This document shows positions 3,818 to 57,510 of a stretch of DNA of 64,000 bases, in pieces. Under the pieces are notes generated by a model. The model saw nothing but the letters and a program-made list of their open reading frames with translations. It made no database searches and was not told the DNA's origin. Numbering within the stretch: the first letter of the stretch is position 1; each line of letters opens with the position of its first letter. Origin of the DNA: Parcubacteria group bacterium (GTDB lineage Bacteria > Patescibacteriota > Minisyncoccia > Phycocordibacterales > Phycocordibacteraceae); the NCBI GenBank assembly GCA_028286605.1, contig JAQBRE010000002.1, positions 326,011 to 390,010 of the forward strand. Direction: 5' to 3'. The translations under genes were made by a program, and so were the position numbers.

Positions 3818-4984
3818 ATGCAGGCACGACGCATCATTCTTCCCGCACTCTTGATACTGATGCTTCCGGCCTTTGCGAATGCCGCGACATTCGCCGAACA
3901 GAAGACGCTCGTTCTTTCTGCGGCGCCTCCGGATAACACGTACCTTGCCGGCGCAAGTGTAACGGTGAGTGCTCCATTGCCTGCTGATCTTTCAGCAGCA
4001 GGCGGCACTGTAACGACATATTCGCCGATTGGAGGTGATGCGCTTATTGCAGGCGGTACGGTAGATTTGCAGCAGGCCGTTGCAGGCGACGTGCGCGCGG
4101 TTGGCGGACGCATCATGATTGATGCGCCGGTGGCCGGCGACGTAGTCGCCGGTGGAGCAACGATAAACGTTTCTGCGCCAGCGCGTGATATGCGCCTGTT
4201 CGGCGTGAACGTGCAGGCAACGGGCGGTGCGTACGGACCGGTCACTATCTACGGGGCAGACGTAACGCTTGCGGGAAATTATGACGGTGATGTGGAGGTA
4301 ATCGCTTCAGACCACTTCACGGTTGGCCCGAATACGCACATTCATGGCGTGCTGAAATACAATGCACCTCAGCAGGCTGAGATTCCTGCATCATCCATCG
4401 TGGATGGGGGAGTAACGTACACGGGCTCCTACGCATACGTACCGACGAATGCAGAAGCGCAGAAGTTCGCGATTGCCGGCGCGGGAGTATTCTTCATTGT
4501 GCGGGCGCTTGCGGTGATGATAGCGGCCGGCCTCCTGGCCGGCCTGTTCCCGCAATTCAGCGAAGCGCTCGCCACACGCATATTCACGCGCCGCTACGCA
4601 CGCACGAGCCTGCTCGCACTTCTTGGCTTCGGCGTGCTTATCGCCACGCCCGTTCTTATTCTGCTTCTCACGGTTTCATTCGTGGGCGGCGGCCTCGCAT
4701 TACTGCTCGGTTCTGGGTATGTCTTCCTTATTTTCCTTTCCTACATATACACGGGCATTCTTGCGGGAGGCGCGCTTCGTCAACTAATTACGAAGCGATC
4801 CGCTACGCTCATCTCCTGGCAGGATGCTCTCGCCGGCACTCTCGTATTTTTCATACTCGGTAGCATTCCCTACTTAGGCGGCATCATCACGCTCATCGCA
4901 GTGTGTCTTACGCTTGGCTTCATGGTCTCTGGTCTATACTTATTCACATTCCGCAGGGATACCTCGTGGCAGGAATCACTCTAA
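3818..4984 (+). CDS. Membrane protein with N-terminal signal peptide, extracytoplasmic beta-solenoid-like G-D-V repeat region and C-terminal polytopic membrane domain
   Basis: Signal peptide LLILMLPAFANA. Repeats AGDVRAVGG / AGDVVAGG / GADVTLAG. Four C-terminal hydrophobic helices. Confidence 0.45.
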   Translation: MQARRIILPALLILMLPAFANAATFAEQKTLVLSAAPPDNTYLAGASVTVSAPLPADLSAAGGTVTTYSPIGGDALIAGGTVDLQQAVAGDVRAVGGRIMIDAPVAGDVVAGGATINVSAPARDMRLFGVNVQATGGAYGPVTIYGADVTLAGNYDGDVEVIASDHFTVGPNTHIHGVLKYNAPQQAEIPASSIVDGGVTYTGSYAYVPTNAEAQKFAIAGAGVFFIVRALAVMIAAGLLAGLFPQFSEALATRIFTRRYARTSLLALLGFGVLIATPVLILLLTVSFVGGGLALLLGSGYVFLIFLSYIYTGILAGGALRQLITKRSATLISWQDALAGTLVFFILGSIPYLGGIITLIAVCLTLGFMVSGLYLFTFRRDTSWQESL

Positions 4985-10873: not shown

Positions 10874-12571
10874 TTACTTCTTCACGAAGATCGGCCACAC
10901 GAGCTCCTCGTTGCGATACCAGTGCGACACATCGTCGAACCGGTCTGATGGTGCCGCGACGTGATTCAGATGCACGCCACGCAGGCTGGCCGGTATCGCG
11001 TACACGAAGTCTGGCGTGTGCGTGAACGCGGCAGGGTAGTCGTTCGCGATTGTCGTGTTAAGCGTCGCAAGGTCAGTGAGATCAGGCGTCTGCGCGCTGC
11101 GAATCTTTTCGAGCAACGCATCCGTAGTCTTGCTCGAGTAGTCTGCGATGTTCAGGCCCGGGTCTGCGCGCTCCGCCGTATCCCAGAACGCATAGAGGTC
11201 TGGGCTCCGGCCTATGATTTCTCCGAAGAGGAGCGCGCCGTAGGCGCGCGGACGGATAACATTCTGCGTCAAAGAACTCGGATCCTGCAGCTGGATAGTG
11301 GTCGGAACGCCAAGCGCTTGCCAGTCTTTCTGTATCTGCGAAGCGACCGCTTTCAGTTCCGGCACATTGCTCGTGGTGAGCGGTACCGAAAGATTCACGC
11401 CAGCCTTGCTCCACGTTTGCGTACTGGTAGCGAATTTCCATTTTCCCGCTATCAATACCGTGCGCGCATCCGCGATACGCGTGCTTGCGTCAGGAAGTGC
11501 GATAGCGGGAACGCCATTGCCAGGCGGCACAGGACCGTTGATTGGCGTCGCATATCCGCCGAGCGCGTCACTTACGATCGCCTGGCGGTCGATCGCGATA
11601 GAAAGCGCTTCGCGTACGCTCGTGTCTGTAAATAGCGCATTGTTCGCAGGATTGAAGAAGACACCGAAGACTCGATCATACGGCACGCGAAGTGCACTCT
11701 TCGTCGCGACTCCGTACCCACTTTCAACGCTGCCGCTCTTGAGTGCTGCAGCGAGTGATTCCTGGTCTGCAAAGAATACCAGGCGCATGCCGTTCAAGTA
11801 TGCGCGGCTGGGTGCATATCCTTTGAATACGCTGAGATCATACGAAGCGATCGAGCCGTCTTTCGCACGAGCCACGTTCGATACTTCGAATGGCCCTGCC
11901 CCCACTGCATTTACCTGATAGTTCGAGAACGCGAATTCCGAATCTGAAACATTCTTCCATATATGCATAGGAAGAATGCCGAGCGTCGTGTCTTCTAGGA
12001 AGGGTTGATATGCCTTGGGCAGTGTGAAGCGAACCGTACGTGCATCTATCGCTTCTGCACGAATATTCGCCCAGTTCGCCAGCACGGGGCTACGTAACGC
12101 AGGATCTTGTGCCTTCGTAACCGTATACACCACATCGCTTGCTGTTACGGGCGTACCGTCCGAGAACGTCGCATTCGAGCGCAGTATAAAGGTGTACGTC
12201 TTTCCATCGGGCGAAACGGTATAGCTTTGCGCGAGTATAGGTACGAGCGCTCCGGTACTATCGTGGCCCATAAGGCCGGCGAAGGTAAGTGCCGTGAGGT
12301 CGCGGTCTGTATCTGAAATGGCAAGGATCGGGTTCACGAACCGTGGCGCTCCTACGATTCCTTCAGTAAGCGAACCGCCATACGAAGGTTCTGCTATAAG
12401 GAATCGCAATTCAATGCCATAGAGCGCGATAACGCACGCAAGCAGAACCAGTCCGCCAAGAACCTGCGCGATAAGGCGATCACCAGGTGAAAGGGCACGT
12501 AAGTAGCGAAAGGGAGAGGTCATGCTTTGCACAGAGGACACGGACAAAAGGGAAGCATAGCTTCCCGCCAC
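10874..12571 (-). CDS. ABC transporter substrate-binding protein, family 5 (oligopeptide/nickel type)
   Basis: N-terminal TM anchor, then an SBP_bac_5-like region (YTF.LR....FSDGTP.TA.DVV.T). 565 aa. No adjacent permease genes. Confidence 0.65.
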   Translation of the reverse strand: MAGSYASLLSVSSVQSMTSPFRYLRALSPGDRLIAQVLGGLVLLACVIALYGIELRFLIAEPSYGGSLTEGIVGAPRFVNPILAISDTDRDLTALTFAGLMGHDSTGALVPILAQSYTVSPDGKTYTFILRSNATFSDGTPVTASDVVYTVTKAQDPALRSPVLANWANIRAEAIDARTVRFTLPKAYQPFLEDTTLGILPMHIWKNVSDSEFAFSNYQVNAVGAGPFEVSNVARAKDGSIASYDLSVFKGYAPSRAYLNGMRLVFFADQESLAAALKSGSVESGYGVATKSALRVPYDRVFGVFFNPANNALFTDTSVREALSIAIDRQAIVSDALGGYATPINGPVPPGNGVPAIALPDASTRIADARTVLIAGKWKFATSTQTWSKAGVNLSVPLTTSNVPELKAVASQIQKDWQALGVPTTIQLQDPSSLTQNVIRPRAYGALLFGEIIGRSPDLYAFWDTAERADPGLNIADYSSKTTDALLEKIRSAQTPDLTDLATLNTTIANDYPAAFTHTPDFVYAIPASLRGVHLNHVAAPSDRFDDVSHWYRNEELVWPIFVKK

Positions 12572-13726: not shown

Positions 13727-13845
13727 GGCTCGGTTCTCCCAATAGCCGTTGATTTGGACTGGATATACTATAGCACTATAATTGTGTATTTGTCAAGTTA
13801 AGCAAATAATGTGACAGGGAAGCAGAAGTACTATTTGGAGATATC

Positions 13846-13875
13846 AAATAATGACCAGATTTCTGGTCATTATTT
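13846..13875. promoter_or_regulatory. 30 bp palindrome AAATAATGACCAGA-TT-TCTGGTCATTATTT. Candidate operator, 178 bp upstream of groES.
   Basis: Perfect 14 bp arms. A near-identical copy lies at 56862..56901. No CIRCE (TTAGCACTC-N9-GAGTGCTAA) or HAIR element is present upstream of groES. Confidence 0.5.
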
Positions 13876-14052
13876 AGAGTTGACGAAATAGAACTATCTA
13901 CGCGTACAGGGCGATAAAACAGCTTTATTTGACGCGTTTCTTGCATCTTCATATACTTAGCCTACCTGTGGATAACTTTTTGAGGCAGGGAAGCGTCTTG
14001 CCTCAGAATCCACGCATTTACAAGCGTTCTTCAACTCCCTAAGAGCGTATTT

Positions 14053-18314: not shown

Positions 18315-18349
18315 AAAAGGAATGGCCCGCGAAGCGGGCCATTCCTTTT
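18315..18349. terminator. Bidirectional terminator between tRNA-Ser/htpX (+) and the dsbA-like gene (-)
   Basis: 16 bp stem aaaaggaatggcccgc / gcgggccattcctttt, with A/T runs on both sides. Confidence 0.6.
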
Positions 18350-19865: not shown

Positions 19866-20369
19866 ATGTATGAAGGCGTAGACACCGCGCATAAAAGACA
19901 ATATGTCCGATACGGCATCGTCGCCTTCGTGGTGCTCGGCGCACTGGTCGGCTGGGCCTGGTATGCGCACCCGATGTCCGATAGTCATCTTTCCATATTC
20001 CCCACTGCTACCACCACGCCTTCAAGCGCCATATCCTATGAAATCGTTACAAGTACGGCAGATCAAGAAAGGGGACTAGGTGGTCGTGCGAATATTCCCC
20101 CTGATTACGCGATGCTTTTCGTGTTTCCGAAGGACGGAACGTACGGATTCTGGATGAAAGACATGCTCGCAACCATCGACATGATCTGGCTCTCGGACAA
20201 TGGAACGGTCGTGCACCTCGAGCAGAACGTCGCACCTTCAACCTACCCGCATGTCTTTTATCCGAACACGCCGGCACGATACGTCCTAGAGATGCGCGCA
20301 GGGCAGGCAGCCGCACGAGACCTCGGCATCGGTTCTAAAATTTCCCTTCCCTTGCCATACGGAAAATAG
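19866..20369 (+). CDS. DUF192-family protein (secreted/anchored)
   Basis: N-terminal TM, then a DUF192-like pattern (MLFVFPKDGTYGFWMKDMLATIDMIWLSDNG...YVLEMRAG). Confidence 0.55.
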   Translation: MYEGVDTAHKRQYVRYGIVAFVVLGALVGWAWYAHPMSDSHLSIFPTATTTPSSAISYEIVTSTADQERGLGGRANIPPDYAMLFVFPKDGTYGFWMKDMLATIDMIWLSDNGTVVHLEQNVAPSTYPHVFYPNTPARYVLEMRAGQAAARDLGIGSKISLPLPYGK

Positions 20370-24381: not shown

Positions 24382-24402
24382 TTAACAATCTTATAGTTTG
24401 TA

Positions 24403-24432
24403 AGAAAAGCGTCCGGTGGACGCTTTTCTTAC
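24403..24432 (+). terminator. Rho-independent terminator after nrdB
   Basis: aagaaaagcgtccgg-tggacgcttttctta. Confidence 0.6.
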
Positions 24433-26159: not shown

Positions 26160-26513
26160 GGACCGATCCAGACGACCGCTCCAAGATGCCGGAAGGCCTC
26201 AGGGGAGGAAAGTCCGAACACAGGCCGGCGGTTTCCGCCGGCAGAAGGGTAGCGGGTAACGCCCGTCCGCAGTAATGCGCGAGGTGCGAGCAGAGACGCT
26301 TTAGCGGAAACGCGAGAGCATCTGATTTCGGTCAGATGAATCCACTTGGTGACTTGTGGGGTGAAACGGCTAAATCCTTACTTCTGTGCAAGGCCGTGCC
26401 GGTAGTCTTTCGGGACATGCCGGAGCGCCGCTCGAGCCGGCTGGTAACAGCCGGCCCAGATAGATGGTCGTCCTTGCGCAAGCAGGACAGAATTCGGCTT
26501 ATCGGATCGGTTC
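26160..26513 (+). ncRNA. rnpB: RNase P RNA (bacterial type A)
   Basis: P4 halves GAGGAAAGTCCGAACAC and ACAGAATTCGGCTTATC, GGTAACGCC, GGTGAAA, GCTGGTAACAG. The 10 bp P1 pairs 26160-26169 with 26504-26513. Confidence 0.85.
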
Positions 26514-26524
26514 AAAAACATGAA

Positions 26525-26549
26525 GAAACCTACCCTCTGGGTGGGTTTC
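26525..26549 (+). terminator. Terminator after rnpB
   Basis: gaaacctaccc-tct-gggtgggtttc hairpin, then ttcgctttt. Confidence 0.55.
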
Positions 26550-26656
26550 TTCGCTTTTATATGCTCTGGTTTTCTATCCACATAGTTAGTATTGAGGTCT
26601 CGTACAGAACGTATACTTAAGAGGTTCTCTTACTAAGGGTTAATCCCGTAATTACG

Positions 26657-33248: not shown

Positions 33249-33263
33249 CTGACGCGAAAAAGT

Positions 33264-33298
33264 AAAAACAGCCCCGACCTCCGGTCGGGGCTGTTTTT
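33264..33298 (+). terminator. Rho-independent terminator after the glutaredoxin gene
   Basis: 16 bp stem aaaaacagccccgacc / ggtcggggctgttttt. Confidence 0.65.
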
Positions 33299-33317
33299 AT
33301 GCTACGCTCGCAGTATC

Positions 33318-37906: not shown

Positions 37907-37922
37907 GCGCGATAGATACGTA

Positions 37923-38016
37923 AAAAGCACTCTAAAAAGGGGCTGCGGAGCGTGACGACGCGAGCCGGAGCAAATTCCCAGCAGGGAATTATGCGTACCC
38001 TTTTTAGAGTGCTTTT
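37923..38016. repeat. Copy 1 of a ~95 nt conserved structured element. 19 bp perfect outer stem, enclosing a 56 nt core with two internal hairpins. Candidate structured RNA or bidirectional terminator.
   Basis: AAAAGCACTCTAAAAAGGG-[gctgcggagcgtgacgacgcgagccggagcaaattcccagcagggaattatgcgta]-CCCTTTTTAGAGTGCTTTT. The copy at 49740..49835 has the same 56 nt core with 5 substitutions and a different outer stem. Confidence 0.6.
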
Positions 38017-38023
38017 GAAGTGT

Positions 38024-38563
38024 CTAGGTAGACTTCACCTTCAGCTTCGTCTGACGGCTCTTATCAAGCTTCGGCATAACGATGGTGAGCAAACCATCCT
38101 TAGCACCCGCTGATGCATTGTCCACATCAACTTCCTGTGGAAGAAGGATGGTACGGGAGAATGAACCCCAGAAGAGTTCGCGTATAAAATAATCCTCGTC
38201 GTTCACGGCATCACGCTCTTCGCGCGAACCTTCAATAACAACCATATCGCGGCTAAGCGAAAGGCTTATCTCATCGGGACGAACGCCTGCGATGAAAGTG
38301 CGAATGACGATCTCGCCTGCGGTCTGATAGACGTCTACAGGAAGCTCGCCATCGCTCTGCTTTTCCTCAAGCGCGTTGATCATGGTCGCATGCGCTGGAG
38401 CTGGAGCGACGGAAGGAATAGAACCCATTGAACCGGTAGGAGAATTAGCCGACATTTTGCGGATGGGCTGCTGCTGCGGAACGAAATCGTCTTCGAACGC
38501 ATCGTAGTCATCCGAGATCGGAACCGATCCGGAGAGCCGTTCGAAGAAAGATCGTTTTTTCAT
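38024..38563 (-). CDS. Hsp20/alpha-crystallin family small heat-shock protein
   Basis: Alpha-crystallin domain with DGLLTIVMPK (the G-x-L motif). 179 aa. Confidence 0.85.
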   Translation of the reverse strand: MKKRSFFERLSGSVPISDDYDAFEDDFVPQQQPIRKMSANSPTGSMGSIPSVAPAPAHATMINALEEKQSDGELPVDVYQTAGEIVIRTFIAGVRPDEISLSLSRDMVVIEGSREERDAVNDEDYFIRELFWGSFSRTILLPQEVDVDNASAGAKDGLLTIVMPKLDKSRQTKLKVKST

Positions 38564-44317: not shown

Positions 44318-44327
44318 TTAATCCTTT

Positions 44328-44364
44328 AAAAAACACGGCCTTGCTATGCAAGGCCGTGTTTTTT
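44328..44364. terminator. Bidirectional terminator between convergent genes
   Basis: aaaaaacacggccttgc-tatg-caaggccgtgtttttt. Confidence 0.65.
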
Positions 44365-44383
44365 AATACCCACCCACAAATAT

Positions 44384-46774: not shown

Positions 46775-46804
46775 AATGAACGCCTGCTTCAGCAGGCGTT
46801 CATT
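46775..46804 (+). terminator. Hairpin terminator after tRNA-Ser(CGA)
   Basis: aatgaacgcctgc-ttca-gcaggcgttcatt. Confidence 0.55.
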
Positions 46805-48717: not shown

Positions 48718-48740
48718 GCAGTCGCACTCATCTCCAACAG

Positions 48741-48769
48741 AAAAGCCGCGAGCGAAGCTCGCGGCTTTT
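48741..48769. terminator. Bidirectional terminator (downstream of trxB on the minus strand and of the small acidic ORF on the plus strand)
   Basis: aaaagccgcgagc-gaa-gctcgcggctttt. Confidence 0.65.
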
Positions 48770-48790
48770 CTTATTCTCACCATTCTTTCA

Positions 48791-49714: not shown

Positions 49715-49739
49715 TTTTAAATTATATCAGGTACAGCAA

Positions 49740-49835
49740 AAAACACTCCGATAAAAGGGGCTGCGGAGCGCGACGGCGCGAGCCGGAGCAATTTTCCAGC
49801 AGGAAAATATGCGTACCCTTTTATCGGAGTGTTTT
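49740..49835. repeat. Copy 2 of the ~95 nt conserved structured element, located between the ftsZ stop and the trxB start
   Basis: AAAACACTCCGATAAAAGGG-[gctgcggagcgcgacggcgcgagccggagcaattttccagcaggaaaatatgcgta]-CCCTTTTATCGGAGTGTTTT. It has a 20 bp perfect outer stem. The core is identical to copy 1 except for compensatory changes. Confidence 0.6.
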
Positions 49836-49842
49836 GAGCTGT

Positions 49843-51117
49843 CTATTTCTTGTGGCGACGAAGGAAGCTTGGAATCGCGCCCCAGGTGTCGTCCTCTTCT
49901 TCGACGATAGGCGGCGTGATGGCCTGTGCGGTTTCGCGAGGCTTCGGCATTGCCGTTACGATAGGCTCTTCGCGTTCGCGGCGAGGAGGAAGGATAGGTC
50001 CCTCGTCTTCTGGCATTGGCATAGATGCTGGCGCTTCTTCGCGCGGTGCAGGGCGGCCGAGCACGTCATTGAAGATCTTTCCGCGGCTTTCTTCCTGCTC
50101 CTTCGCAGGCATCGTGAAGAGCGAGCGTTCGCCACCTGTGTATGACGCGGATCCATCCTGTTCAGGGAAACCGGTCGCGATGACGATGATGCGGAGCTGG
50201 CCCTTCTTAAGCTTCTCATCGCGCATGATACCGAAGATGACCTTCGCGCTCTTATCAACGGATTCGCCGATAACCTTCGCTGCTTCCTGTACTTCAAGGA
50301 TGCCGAGGTCGTCTGAACCTGCGACCACAAAGAGGATGCCACGAGCGCCGGTGATGGAAACATCGAGGAGCGGGGAATTAACGGCTGCTGCAGCGGCGTC
50401 CTTGGCACGGTTGTCGCCGTCTGCGATACCGATACCCATGAGCGCTGGGCCGGCACCTTCCATGATCGCCTTGATGTCGTTGAAGTCCGTGTTGATTTCA
50501 CCAGGAGTGGTGATGATATCGGAAACACCTTCCACTGCCTGACGAAGGATTTCATCGCAGAGCGCGAATGCATTCTTCGCGGAGGTCTGTGCTTCTACGA
50601 TAGAGAGAAGCTTGTCGTTAGGAATAACGAGATATGCGTCTACTTCCTTCTTAAGAGAAGCAAGACCGACTTCAGCGATCTCGGTGCGCTGTGCGCCTTC
50701 GAAGGTGAACGGCTTGGTGACGACGGCAACGGTGAGCGCGCCGAGCTCCTTCGCGATCTTCGCGACGACGCCTGCTGCGCCTGTTCCTGTTCCGCCACCC
50801 ATGCCGCAGGTGATGAAGACCATGTCTGAACCCTGAAGCGCTTCCTGAATCTCCTGACGTGTCTCTTCAGCGGCACGACGGCCGAGCTCTGGGTTCATTC
50901 CAGCACCGAGGCCCTTCGTGAGGTTCTTGCCGATGTGGATCTTACGCTTCGCGAGGCTGCGGTGCAGATCTTGCGCGTCCGTATTGATAGCGATGAACTC
51001 CACGCCCTTCACCTTGGAGTTGATCATGTGATTAACAGCATTGCCGCCAGAACCTCCACAGCCGACGACGCGGATGCGTGCGAACGTTTCGATTTCAGGG
51101 GTTACGCGCTTGGACAT
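49843..51117 (-). CDS. ftsZ: Cell division GTPase FtsZ
   Basis: GGGTGTGAAGVVAKIAKE tubulin signature. 424 aa with a C-terminal tail. Confidence 0.97.
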   Translation of the reverse strand: MSKRVTPEIETFARIRVVGCGGSGGNAVNHMINSKVKGVEFIAINTDAQDLHRSLAKRKIHIGKNLTKGLGAGMNPELGRRAAEETRQEIQEALQGSDMVFITCGMGGGTGTGAAGVVAKIAKELGALTVAVVTKPFTFEGAQRTEIAEVGLASLKKEVDAYLVIPNDKLLSIVEAQTSAKNAFALCDEILRQAVEGVSDIITTPGEINTDFNDIKAIMEGAGPALMGIGIADGDNRAKDAAAAAVNSPLLDVSITGARGILFVVAGSDDLGILEVQEAAKVIGESVDKSAKVIFGIMRDEKLKKGQLRIIVIATGFPEQDGSASYTGGERSLFTMPAKEQEESRGKIFNDVLGRPAPREEAPASMPMPEDEGPILPPRREREEPIVTAMPKPRETAQAITPPIVEEEDDTWGAIPSFLRRHKK

Positions 51118-51249: not shown

Positions 51250-51636
51250 ATGAAAAAAGATTTTAAAGGGTGGAATAAACAAAAAAGCGATATTGATGAT
51301 TCAGCACCACGACCATTCTTTCGTGAAGGTGAAGTATGGTGGTGCTCTTTAGGTGCGAACATTGGTTTTGAAATGGATGGAAAGAATGAAATATTCGAAC
51401 GTCCAGTATTTATACTTAAAAAATTCAATAATGAGACATGTTTGGTTCTCCCTACAACGTCTCAATCTAAGTCTGGACGTTTCTATTATCCATATATGAG
51501 TAATGGAAAGAAATTTGCAATTAATCTGTCACAAGTTCGACTTCTTGATGTAAAACGTTTGAGGCGTAGAGCGTATGTTCTGTCCCAAAAGCAACACAGT
51601 GAAATTAAAACTAAATTCATATCACTCCTTGAATAG
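51250..51636 (+). CDS. MazF/PemK-family endoribonuclease-like toxin paralog 2 (orphan), in a low-GC islet between ftsA and ftsZ
   Basis: GEVWWCSLGANIGFEMDG...FERPVFIL...ETCLVLPTTSQ aligns with the 8307..8696 protein over its full length. No antitoxin-sized ORF is adjacent. Confidence 0.6.
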   Translation: MKKDFKGWNKQKSDIDDSAPRPFFREGEVWWCSLGANIGFEMDGKNEIFERPVFILKKFNNETCLVLPTTSQSKSGRFYYPYMSNGKKFAINLSQVRLLDVKRLRRRAYVLSQKQHSEIKTKFISLLE

Positions 51637-56861: not shown

Positions 56862-56901
56862 GAAACAAATAATGACCAGAATTCTGGTCATTATTTGTTT
56901 C
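56862..56901. promoter_or_regulatory. 40 bp perfect palindrome GAAACAAATAATGACCAGA-AT-TCTGGTCATTATTTGTTTC. Second copy of the candidate operator, upstream of the small membrane-protein gene 57008..57313.
   Basis: Shares 28/30 positions with 13846..13875. Lies about 55 bp upstream of a TTGACA-N17-CAGTAT putative promoter. Confidence 0.5.
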
Positions 56902-57313: not shown

Positions 57314-57510
57314 CCAACCGTTTCTTCGGCGGAACGAAACCTAAACCCCTTCGTTTCGTGCGGAGGGGCGGTTTTCTTTTCTATAAATTGAGTACTGGGA
57401 TACTGGGATGATGTTGGAACTTTTCTGAAGTGGCGCAGACTAGGGATCGAACTAAAAGACAAAAGGCCGGAGCGAAGCTCCGGCCTTTTGTCTTTTGCAC
57501 CGTGCGTGCG

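Follow-up and report, generated by a model that had tools for sequence, protein, structure and literature searches.

The 64-kb stretch of DNA analysed here (hereafter the window) carries two copies of a long hairpin element, each lying just past the stop codon of a gene, as the first-pass annotation of this DNA had proposed. Copy 1 separates two convergent genes, DUF2914 (+ strand, stop codon 37904-37906) and hsp20 (- strand, stop codon 38024-38026), and copy 2 lies between the ftsZ stop codon (49843-49845, -) and the trxB start (49714, -), with flanking genes identified through Pfam, ORF lists and synteny with annotated contigs. The FtsZ encoded in the window is 100% identical to MDB5265746.1 ('Parcubacteria group bacterium'). 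The conserved cores of the two copies are located, as originally reported, at 37942-37997 and 49760-49815, and each is enclosed by a perfect outer stem, P1, of 19 bp in copy 1 (AAAAGCACTCTAAAAAGGG, 37923-37941, paired with CCCTTTTTAGAGTGCTTTT, 37998-38016) and 20 bp in copy 2 (AAAACACTCCGATAAAAGGG, 49740-49759, paired with CCCTTTTATCGGAGTGTTTT, 49816-49835). P1 extends outward as an imperfect palindrome of 29 nt in copy 1 and 27 nt in copy 2, as far as the stop codon of the adjacent gene, giving whole extended units of 37913-38026 (-, the presumed transcribed, hsp20-sense orientation) and 49733-49842 (-). The two copies also have a common flank on this strand, TAGACACTTC (38017-38026, containing the TAG stop codon of hsp20) and TAGACAGCTC (49836-49845, containing the TAG stop codon of ftsZ).

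Both copies fold as a three-way junction composed of P1, a GC-rich arm (P2), a 7-bp AU-rich hairpin with an AGCA loop (P3) and a 7-nt unpaired junction, AUGCGUA. In copy 1 these parts occupy 37942-37971 (+ strand, GCU-G-CGG-A-GCGU-GACG-ACGC-GAG-CCG-G-AGC), 37973-37990 (AATTCCC-AGCA-GGGAATT) and 37991-37997 (ATGCGTA, UACGCAU on the - strand); in copy 2 they occupy 49760-49789 (apical hairpin GCGC-GACG-GCGC), 49791-49808 (ATTTTCC-AGCA-GGAAAAT) and 49809-49815 (ATGCGTA). The register of the GC hairpin given above (GCGU-GACG-ACGC with an A / GAG internal loop) is that of the first-pass annotation and is backed by other members of the family, unlike the register predicted by ViennaRNA. Copy 1 is strongly folded on both strands (z = -8.8 and -8.0 versus shuffles), and a 32-nt core pattern that occurs twice in the window was found in none of 100 shuffles. 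The cores had been said to differ by five substitutions, three compensatory pairs among them; the three pairs are borne out (37953/37958, 37974/37989 and 37977/37986), but they account for six differing positions rather than five.

Exact-pattern scans, one of species-representative genomes and one of metagenomes, were combined with synteny searches and confirmed that the two repeats are genuine members of a small, apparently undescribed family of approximately 100-nt hairpin elements in bacteria of the candidate phyla radiation (CPR). Ten distinct copies of what we term type A were identified in four genomes, namely the two of the window and eight further copies, each just past a stop codon, in three other CPR genomes: L002 and L005 in MAG ELA631, L003 and L004 in MAG SRP193066_co2_80, and L006, L009, L011 and L012 on a single 680-kb groundwater contig, on which these four are the exact-pattern copies. 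Diverged variants, types B and C, were located at orthologous sites. Two further pattern matches, L001 and the metagenome match L007, were rejected as chance occurrences in GC-rich coding DNA, as was the single match in a scan of viral contigs, and BLAST searches of phage and plasmid collections returned no match. Within the 64-kb window a covariance model run with filters off detected no copy beyond the two, and blastn-short of the core against the window, including its RNase P RNA and tRNAs, found no related segment. The contig bearing L003 and L004 is labelled 'uncultured Candidatus Saccharibacteria', a label that may be wrong, its S9 protein having its nearest named homologues in Zambryskibacteria and Taylorbacteria. 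Transfer of the element between the classes Saccharibacteria and Parcubacteria was considered and dropped, the nearest named S9 homologues of the labelled clade being Paceibacterota/Parcubacteria; this clade is nevertheless distant from that of the window (RNase J 58% identical).

The first-pass annotation did not recognise the core as any known riboswitch, ribozyme, attC, REP or group II intron domain, and our searches agree. Rfam 15, queried at gathering thresholds and at E<=10 with copy 1, a type B element and the core without P1, yielded no family; the latter two matched nothing, and the sub-threshold matches were hairpin-shaped only (mir-9447, 23.5 versus 67 bits; Ref64, 17 versus 44 bits). 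This check took in the hammerhead, twister, pistol, hatchet and riboswitch classes, none of which scored at or near threshold, and a likeness by eye to hammerhead, K-turn and group II domain V motifs was rejected, their defining motifs being absent. No description of the element was found in Rfam 15 or in full-text literature searches. The element joins two known themes, intrinsic terminators on the one hand and small palindromic repeats or terminator-embedded RNA modules on the other, in an arrangement for which we found no previous description.

In all type A and type B copies the first paired base lies 0-7 nt from the stop codon of the upstream gene, which is hsp20 or ftsZ in the window, RNase J (rnj) for L003, rpsI for L002, L004 and L006, secY for L005 and L012, rpsG for L009 and rplK for L011. 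The genes downstream (trxB, a GIY-YIG gene, adk, an MFS transporter gene and others) each have their own promoter. Directly past copy 2 lies an extended -10-like motif, TGATATAAT (49721-49729, -), 6 nt ahead of the trxB ATG, which is conserved in the related contigs L013 and L018 and is matched by a similar TATACT at the corresponding position in relatives that lack the element; this motif marks the start of the next transcription unit. The same -10 arrangement precedes adk after the secY copies (L005 and L012). Since the element adjoins the stop codon and is followed by the next promoter (TGATATAAT or TGATATTAT), it occupies precisely the position expected of a terminator that closes a transcription unit. 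Read in the gene-sense direction, the stem (z of about -8) is followed by a U tract, U5 in copy 1 (A run 37922-37926) and U6 in copy 2 (A run 49738-49743), and most other copies carry TTTTGTTTT-type U tracts. The suggestion of the first-pass annotation that the element could be a terminator with a conserved internal module thus fits its gene-end context well.

Relative to the flanking genes, the strand on which the element had been described (GCUGCGGAG...) is the antisense one in eight of nine contexts. Copy 2 shows this for both of its neighbours and copy 1 for hsp20, DUF2914 being on the sense side of that strand. This orientation bias (8/9 contexts, including an inverted copy, L035, discussed below; p = 0.04) amounts to 7/8 when independent sites are counted (p = 0.07). 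Judging from gene orientation, the likely transcript is the reverse complement of the strand first described. An independent structured small RNA on the first-described strand, convergent with the upstream gene and using P1 as both closing stem and terminator, would account for several features of the element: this strand folds better by approximately 7 kcal/mol (-53.7 versus -46.6 and -56.3 versus -49.3 kcal/mol), its unpaired positions (A, G, GAG, AA and AUGCGUA) are rich in purines, as is typical of functional RNAs, and are pyrimidine-rich on the presumed sense strand, and it is the gene-sense side in copy 1 and L035. For a transcript of the gene-sense strand, this asymmetry in unpaired bases and folding is the opposite of that usual in structured RNAs. 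However, an RNA of this kind would run antisense to the flanking genes in most contexts, the region upstream of its P1 is the start or promoter of the next gene and contains no conserved promoter-like motif, and in the window its U tract is shorter (U4 on the + strand versus 5-6), all of which make it an improbable reading of the element. A small ORF beginning at the invariant AUG of AUGCGUA, with GGAG ahead of the AU hairpin, was also considered on this strand and rejected, since its frame would run on into the variable arm of P1 and then the antisense strand of the gene upstream, giving unrelated peptides.

The window contains about 15 palindromes that are perfect over 13-20 bp, bear A and T runs and leave 0-3 nt between their arms (57454-57496, 56862-56901, 44326-44366, 33263-33299, 18315-18349, 48739-48771, 46775-46804, 26521-26553, 24400-24432, 13845-13876 and others), several of which directly follow tRNA genes and the RNase P RNA gene. 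These ordinary terminators contain no wobble pairs, which suggests either selection on both strands through bidirectional use or maintenance at the level of DNA. The perfect complementarity of the arms, pointed out in the first-pass annotation, is thus a trait of the terminators of this genome and not of the element. One terminator-type palindrome, CAAATAATGACCAGAWTTCTGGTCATTATTT, occurs twice in the window (13845-13875 and 56866-56896) with 30/31 identity and unrelated flanks, and terminator hairpins seem to have been copied between sites in the source genome. The RNase P RNA itself (26160-26517) scores 118 bits against a gathering threshold of 100 and, given this low score, is a divergent class A RNA, as expected for a CPR genome.

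Covariation was assessed by fitting the ten distinct type A copies to a covariance model, with a MAFFT version of the alignment also made. Standard pairs fill 97.4% of cells and 27/36 pairs are altered on both sides; none of 500 shuffles matched any covariation measure, and pairing fell to 36-53% when partner columns were slid. Covarying pairs are found in P1 (18/20), the AU hairpin (6/7) and the small GC hairpin (3/4). The lower two helices of the GC arm and the AUGCGUA junction are invariant in type A, yet they lie within the search pattern, and the invariance at 24 core positions is in part imposed by the use of exact-match patterns. Among 211 P1 pairs, 196 are Watson-Crick, seven are wobble and eight are of other kinds; with wobble pairs this rare and divided 5 versus 2 between the strands, which is no bias, they tell apart neither the functional strand nor selection on RNA from selection on DNA. 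The hairpin loops form no classic stable RNA tetraloop on either strand. The proposal that the paired substitutions reflect a selected RNA structure hence stands in so far as covariation is strong in P1 and in the GC and AU hairpins, but the same pattern suits DNA equally, since almost every pair is Watson-Crick whichever strand is read.

Conservation of the apical module bears on the possibility that the element is an ordinary bidirectional terminator with an unusually large, functionless loop, the similarity of its cores reflecting shared ancestry only. P1 and its A/T runs are indistinguishable from those of plain terminators, which replace the element in relatives. However, fourfold-degenerate sites between the compared genomes are only 38-62% identical, close to saturation, and over such distances an identity of 97-100% would not persist in a neutral 56-nt loop, nor would that loop gather only compensated changes in two internal hairpins. 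The 64-nt cores of the rpsI orthologues L002 and L004 are the same except for two loop bases, against 24/34 matches in outer P1, and between L002 and L006 the AU hairpin has changed at four pairs, all four of them compensated. The GC arm of type B, which was found by synteny and not by pattern, is identical at 26/26 positions between L013 and L018, with a probability of less than 2e-6 at a neutral identity of 0.6. At all rpsI sites the apical GC hairpin reads GGCC-GWCG-GGCC, and at the secY, rpsG and rplK sites it reads GCGC-GACUG-GCGC; orthologues are closer to each other than are paralogues within a genome, which speaks for vertical inheritance and against concerted evolution. Outer P1 matches at only 6-15/34 positions between non-recent paralogues. 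The first-pass annotation had held that cores varying freely between constant stems would point to a generic terminator or MITE; the reverse was observed, the core being the conserved part. L009 has no U tract and is followed 12 nt on by a plain terminator (AAAAAACCGCT-GGGA-AGCGGTTTTTT) and then TTGACA, so that the element there lies within the 3' UTR, and L005 has lost the 3' arm of P1, its intact core being followed directly by UGUUUUUUGUUU. The module is more than loop filler in these copies, and a functionless loop, at odds also with the presence of element plus plain terminator in L009, strikes us as very doubtful.

Orthologous sites in relatives were found by protein and not by pattern. 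Across contigs whose FtsZ is 89-93% identical to that of the window, the ftsZ-trxB spacer exists in three states. In L013 and L018 it holds a diverged type B element (56-63 bits) with a P1 of 26-27 bp, in which the AU hairpin keeps its UGCU loop and is longer by four covarying pairs (GGAA/UUCC versus AGGA/UCCU) and the GC arm is re-registered. In L015, L016 and L020 the 51-nt spacer holds a short plain terminator alone, before the same -10 box. At the copy 1 site L016 and L020 have no room for any spacer, since the stop codons of hsp20 and DUF2914 overlap there. At the rpsI site the same element occurs in ten contigs of the L006 species, a plain terminator takes its place in L033 (S9 77% identical), and the site in L035 (S9 74% identical) is taken by a diverged element of type C (29 bits) that lies in the opposite orientation and still folds. 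The inversion in L035 is real, as shown by the order of its hairpins and by both loop sequences, and its lower GC-arm helix is AAC/GUU in place of CGG/CCG. No single sequence is essential across the whole family, because types B and C have another junction and a re-registered GC arm. Two other ftsZ-trxB neighbourhoods were observed. In L022, a more distant relative, the sequence after ftsZ (11262-11330) contains pieces of the type A core (GAGCCGCAGCCCC ... GTACGCATA) scrambled into another order; lacking a stable fold (z = 0.1), it was rejected as a structured copy, and the pieces are possibly a decayed relic or chance. In L021 (11252-11455) the element is absent from the 205-nt spacer, which has unrelated content and a 16-bp perfect palindrome (AGCAGTATCCCCAGCC / GGCTGGGGATACTGCT).

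The presence of filled and empty sites among relatives (L016 and L020 at both hsp20/DUF2914 and ftsZ-trxB) raises the main rival to a terminator RNA, namely that the element is a non-autonomous palindromic repeat of the REP/BIME or MITE kind, folding as single-stranded or cruciform DNA, copied in trans by a transposase or recombinase and tolerated or co-opted as a terminator. Evidence for mobility comes from two pairs of copies. Those of the window are similar past the core, in P1 (AAAAGCACTC versus AAAACACTCC) and in the flank TAGACA, and L003 (rnj) and L004 (rpsI) have in common P1 and TAAGTRGGG, of which TAA is the RNase J stop codon in L003; whole units of approximately 115-125 nt have therefore been duplicated onto a further gene end on at least two occasions, joined there at the stop codon. 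The type A core of the window matches that of the distant clade, whereas its closer relatives have type B at the same site, within a P1 that has the same outer half as the window copy (AAAACACTCCGAT). One copy (L035) is inverted, the pairing is almost purely Watson-Crick without a loop or wobble signal for either RNA strand, and a second, unrelated terminator palindrome has also been duplicated in the window. Against a mobile repeat, copy number is very low (two in 64 kb by the filters-off covariance model and four on the 680-kb contig), the terminal arms are not conserved between copies and offer no common terminal inverted repeat, and comparison of the window with L016 at hsp20/DUF2914 reveals neither a target-site duplication nor a direct repeat, the junction being the stop codon. 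Moreover, orthologous copies persist despite saturated synonymous sites, which indicates vertical inheritance under purifying selection and not recent spread, phage and plasmid collections are devoid of matches and viral contigs gave a chance match only, and across the annotated loci, which span 64 kb of the source genome and flanks of up to 10 kb elsewhere, no copy has a transposase beside it. On balance we view a DNA-level repeat as unlikely, though a serious candidate.

Comparison with known systems places the element between several of them. Like Rho-independent terminators, it has a stable stem between an A run and a T run, past a stop codon and ahead of the next promoter, and relatives carry plain terminators at its position; it differs in its stem of 18-33 bp, in the conserved two-hairpin junction of 56-62 nt that replaces a short loop, and in the L009 element, where the U tract is absent and a distinct terminator comes next. 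Small palindromic repeats are dispersed, lie at the 3' ends of genes, can terminate transcription or stabilise mRNA and are occasionally copied, and families such as REP/BIME, ERIC, BOX, Correia and B. cereus bcr1 number tens to hundreds of copies and are conserved over their whole sequence or at their ends. The element likewise is dispersed, imperfectly palindromic, placed at gene 3' ends and occasionally copied to new sites, but it has few copies per genome, and its arms are unrelated, only the asymmetric centre being conserved; neither a GTAG-type REP head nor a RAYT was seen among its copies and annotated loci. In the HMP-PP (thiS) riboswitch of Atilho et al. 2019, conserved structured nucleotides are reportedly nested in an intrinsic terminator hairpin, and the motif is said to occur in the 5' leaders of one gene class, with ligand competing with a short terminator. 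The element also nests conserved structured nucleotides within a terminator hairpin, but it follows genes, its P1 is too long for ligand dependence and the genes downstream of it are unrelated and form no coherent set. With integron attC sites it has in common an imperfect palindrome right after an ORF, a fixed orientation and a hairpin fold; however, attC retains its outer R''/R' boxes (GTTRRRY) around a variable centre and the element does the reverse, its variable outer arms lacking GTTRRRY and thus the attC core sites (RYYYAAC / GTTRRRY), and its neighbours are core housekeeping genes rather than cassettes.

Taken with this context, the evidence leads us to favour, at about even chances, a cis-acting 3'-UTR/terminator RNA of housekeeping transcripts, made from the gene-sense strand and bearing a sequence-specific apical module. 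Right after the stop codon, RNA polymerase would transcribe the 5' arm of the long perfect P1 (18-33 bp), followed by the conserved 56-62-nt module, consisting of UACGCAUA, the AU hairpin (YRNU loop), UU and the GC-rich arm, which on the sense strand would read GCU-C-CGG-CUC-[4-bp hairpin, CGNC loop]-U-CCG-C-AGC, and then by the 3' arm, generally with a U tract behind it. The two small hairpins would fold first and bring the arms of P1 together, and P1 with its U tract could then work in the manner of the long-palindrome intrinsic terminators that are ordinary in these genomes, ending the transcript ahead of the promoter of the next gene and capping its 3' end. The apical module, kept by selection for its sequence, would serve as the specific handle for a putative factor acting in trans, for which the most plausible candidate is an RNA-binding protein or a nuclease controlling how stable the 3' end is or how it is processed.

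More tentatively, and at distinctly less than even chances, the module may represent a new sequence-specific RNA on the 3' ends of a few essential CPR transcripts, for example a putative docking site for a protein or nuclease or a signal for processing or self-cleavage. If so, ribosomal-protein operons, secY, ftsZ, rnj and hsp20 would share a post-transcriptional control point in reduced genomes, and co-evolution with a partner would have produced types A, B and C as its variants. CPR/Patescibacteria have tiny genomes in which RNA regulation is little known, and the motif offers a concrete, testable entry point: it could show how termination or stabilisation of key mRNAs is achieved in these bacteria, lead by way of phylogenetic co-occurrence to a new RNA-protein pair, or document a new way for terminator hairpins to carry and spread functional cargo. 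Even as a selfish palindromic repeat only, the element would still show how reduced genomes copy terminators from one gene end to another.

Several further features were observed at these loci. The extended -10 boxes (TGnTATAAT or TGATATTAT) found in the window (49721-49729, -), L005 (1833-1841), L012 (about 4657-4665, -), L013 (11403-11411) and L018 (about 11405-11413) lie only 6 nt before the ATG of trxB and adk, and this close spacing implies that the trxB and adk mRNAs are leaderless or nearly leaderless. In L011 (4561-6030), the element comes after rplK, and the next ORF is an unrelated one of 280 aa in place of rplA. A subgroup of Parcubacteria has been reported without ribosomal protein L1, and the absence of rplA here may fit that subgroup. 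In the window, a 128-aa ORF (51250-51636, +) lies between ftsA and ftsZ on the opposite strand; the gene at the same place in L013 and L016 matches PemK_toxin (PF02452), which marks it as a predicted MazF/PemK-type toxin gene wedged into the division cluster. An inverted repeat at 20152/20249 of the window was set aside as lying within coding sequence. Finally, in-frame-looking direct repeats of 36-83 nt (ACCGGATACTTCGG...) at 1084-1500 probably correspond to a repeated protein motif in a coding region.
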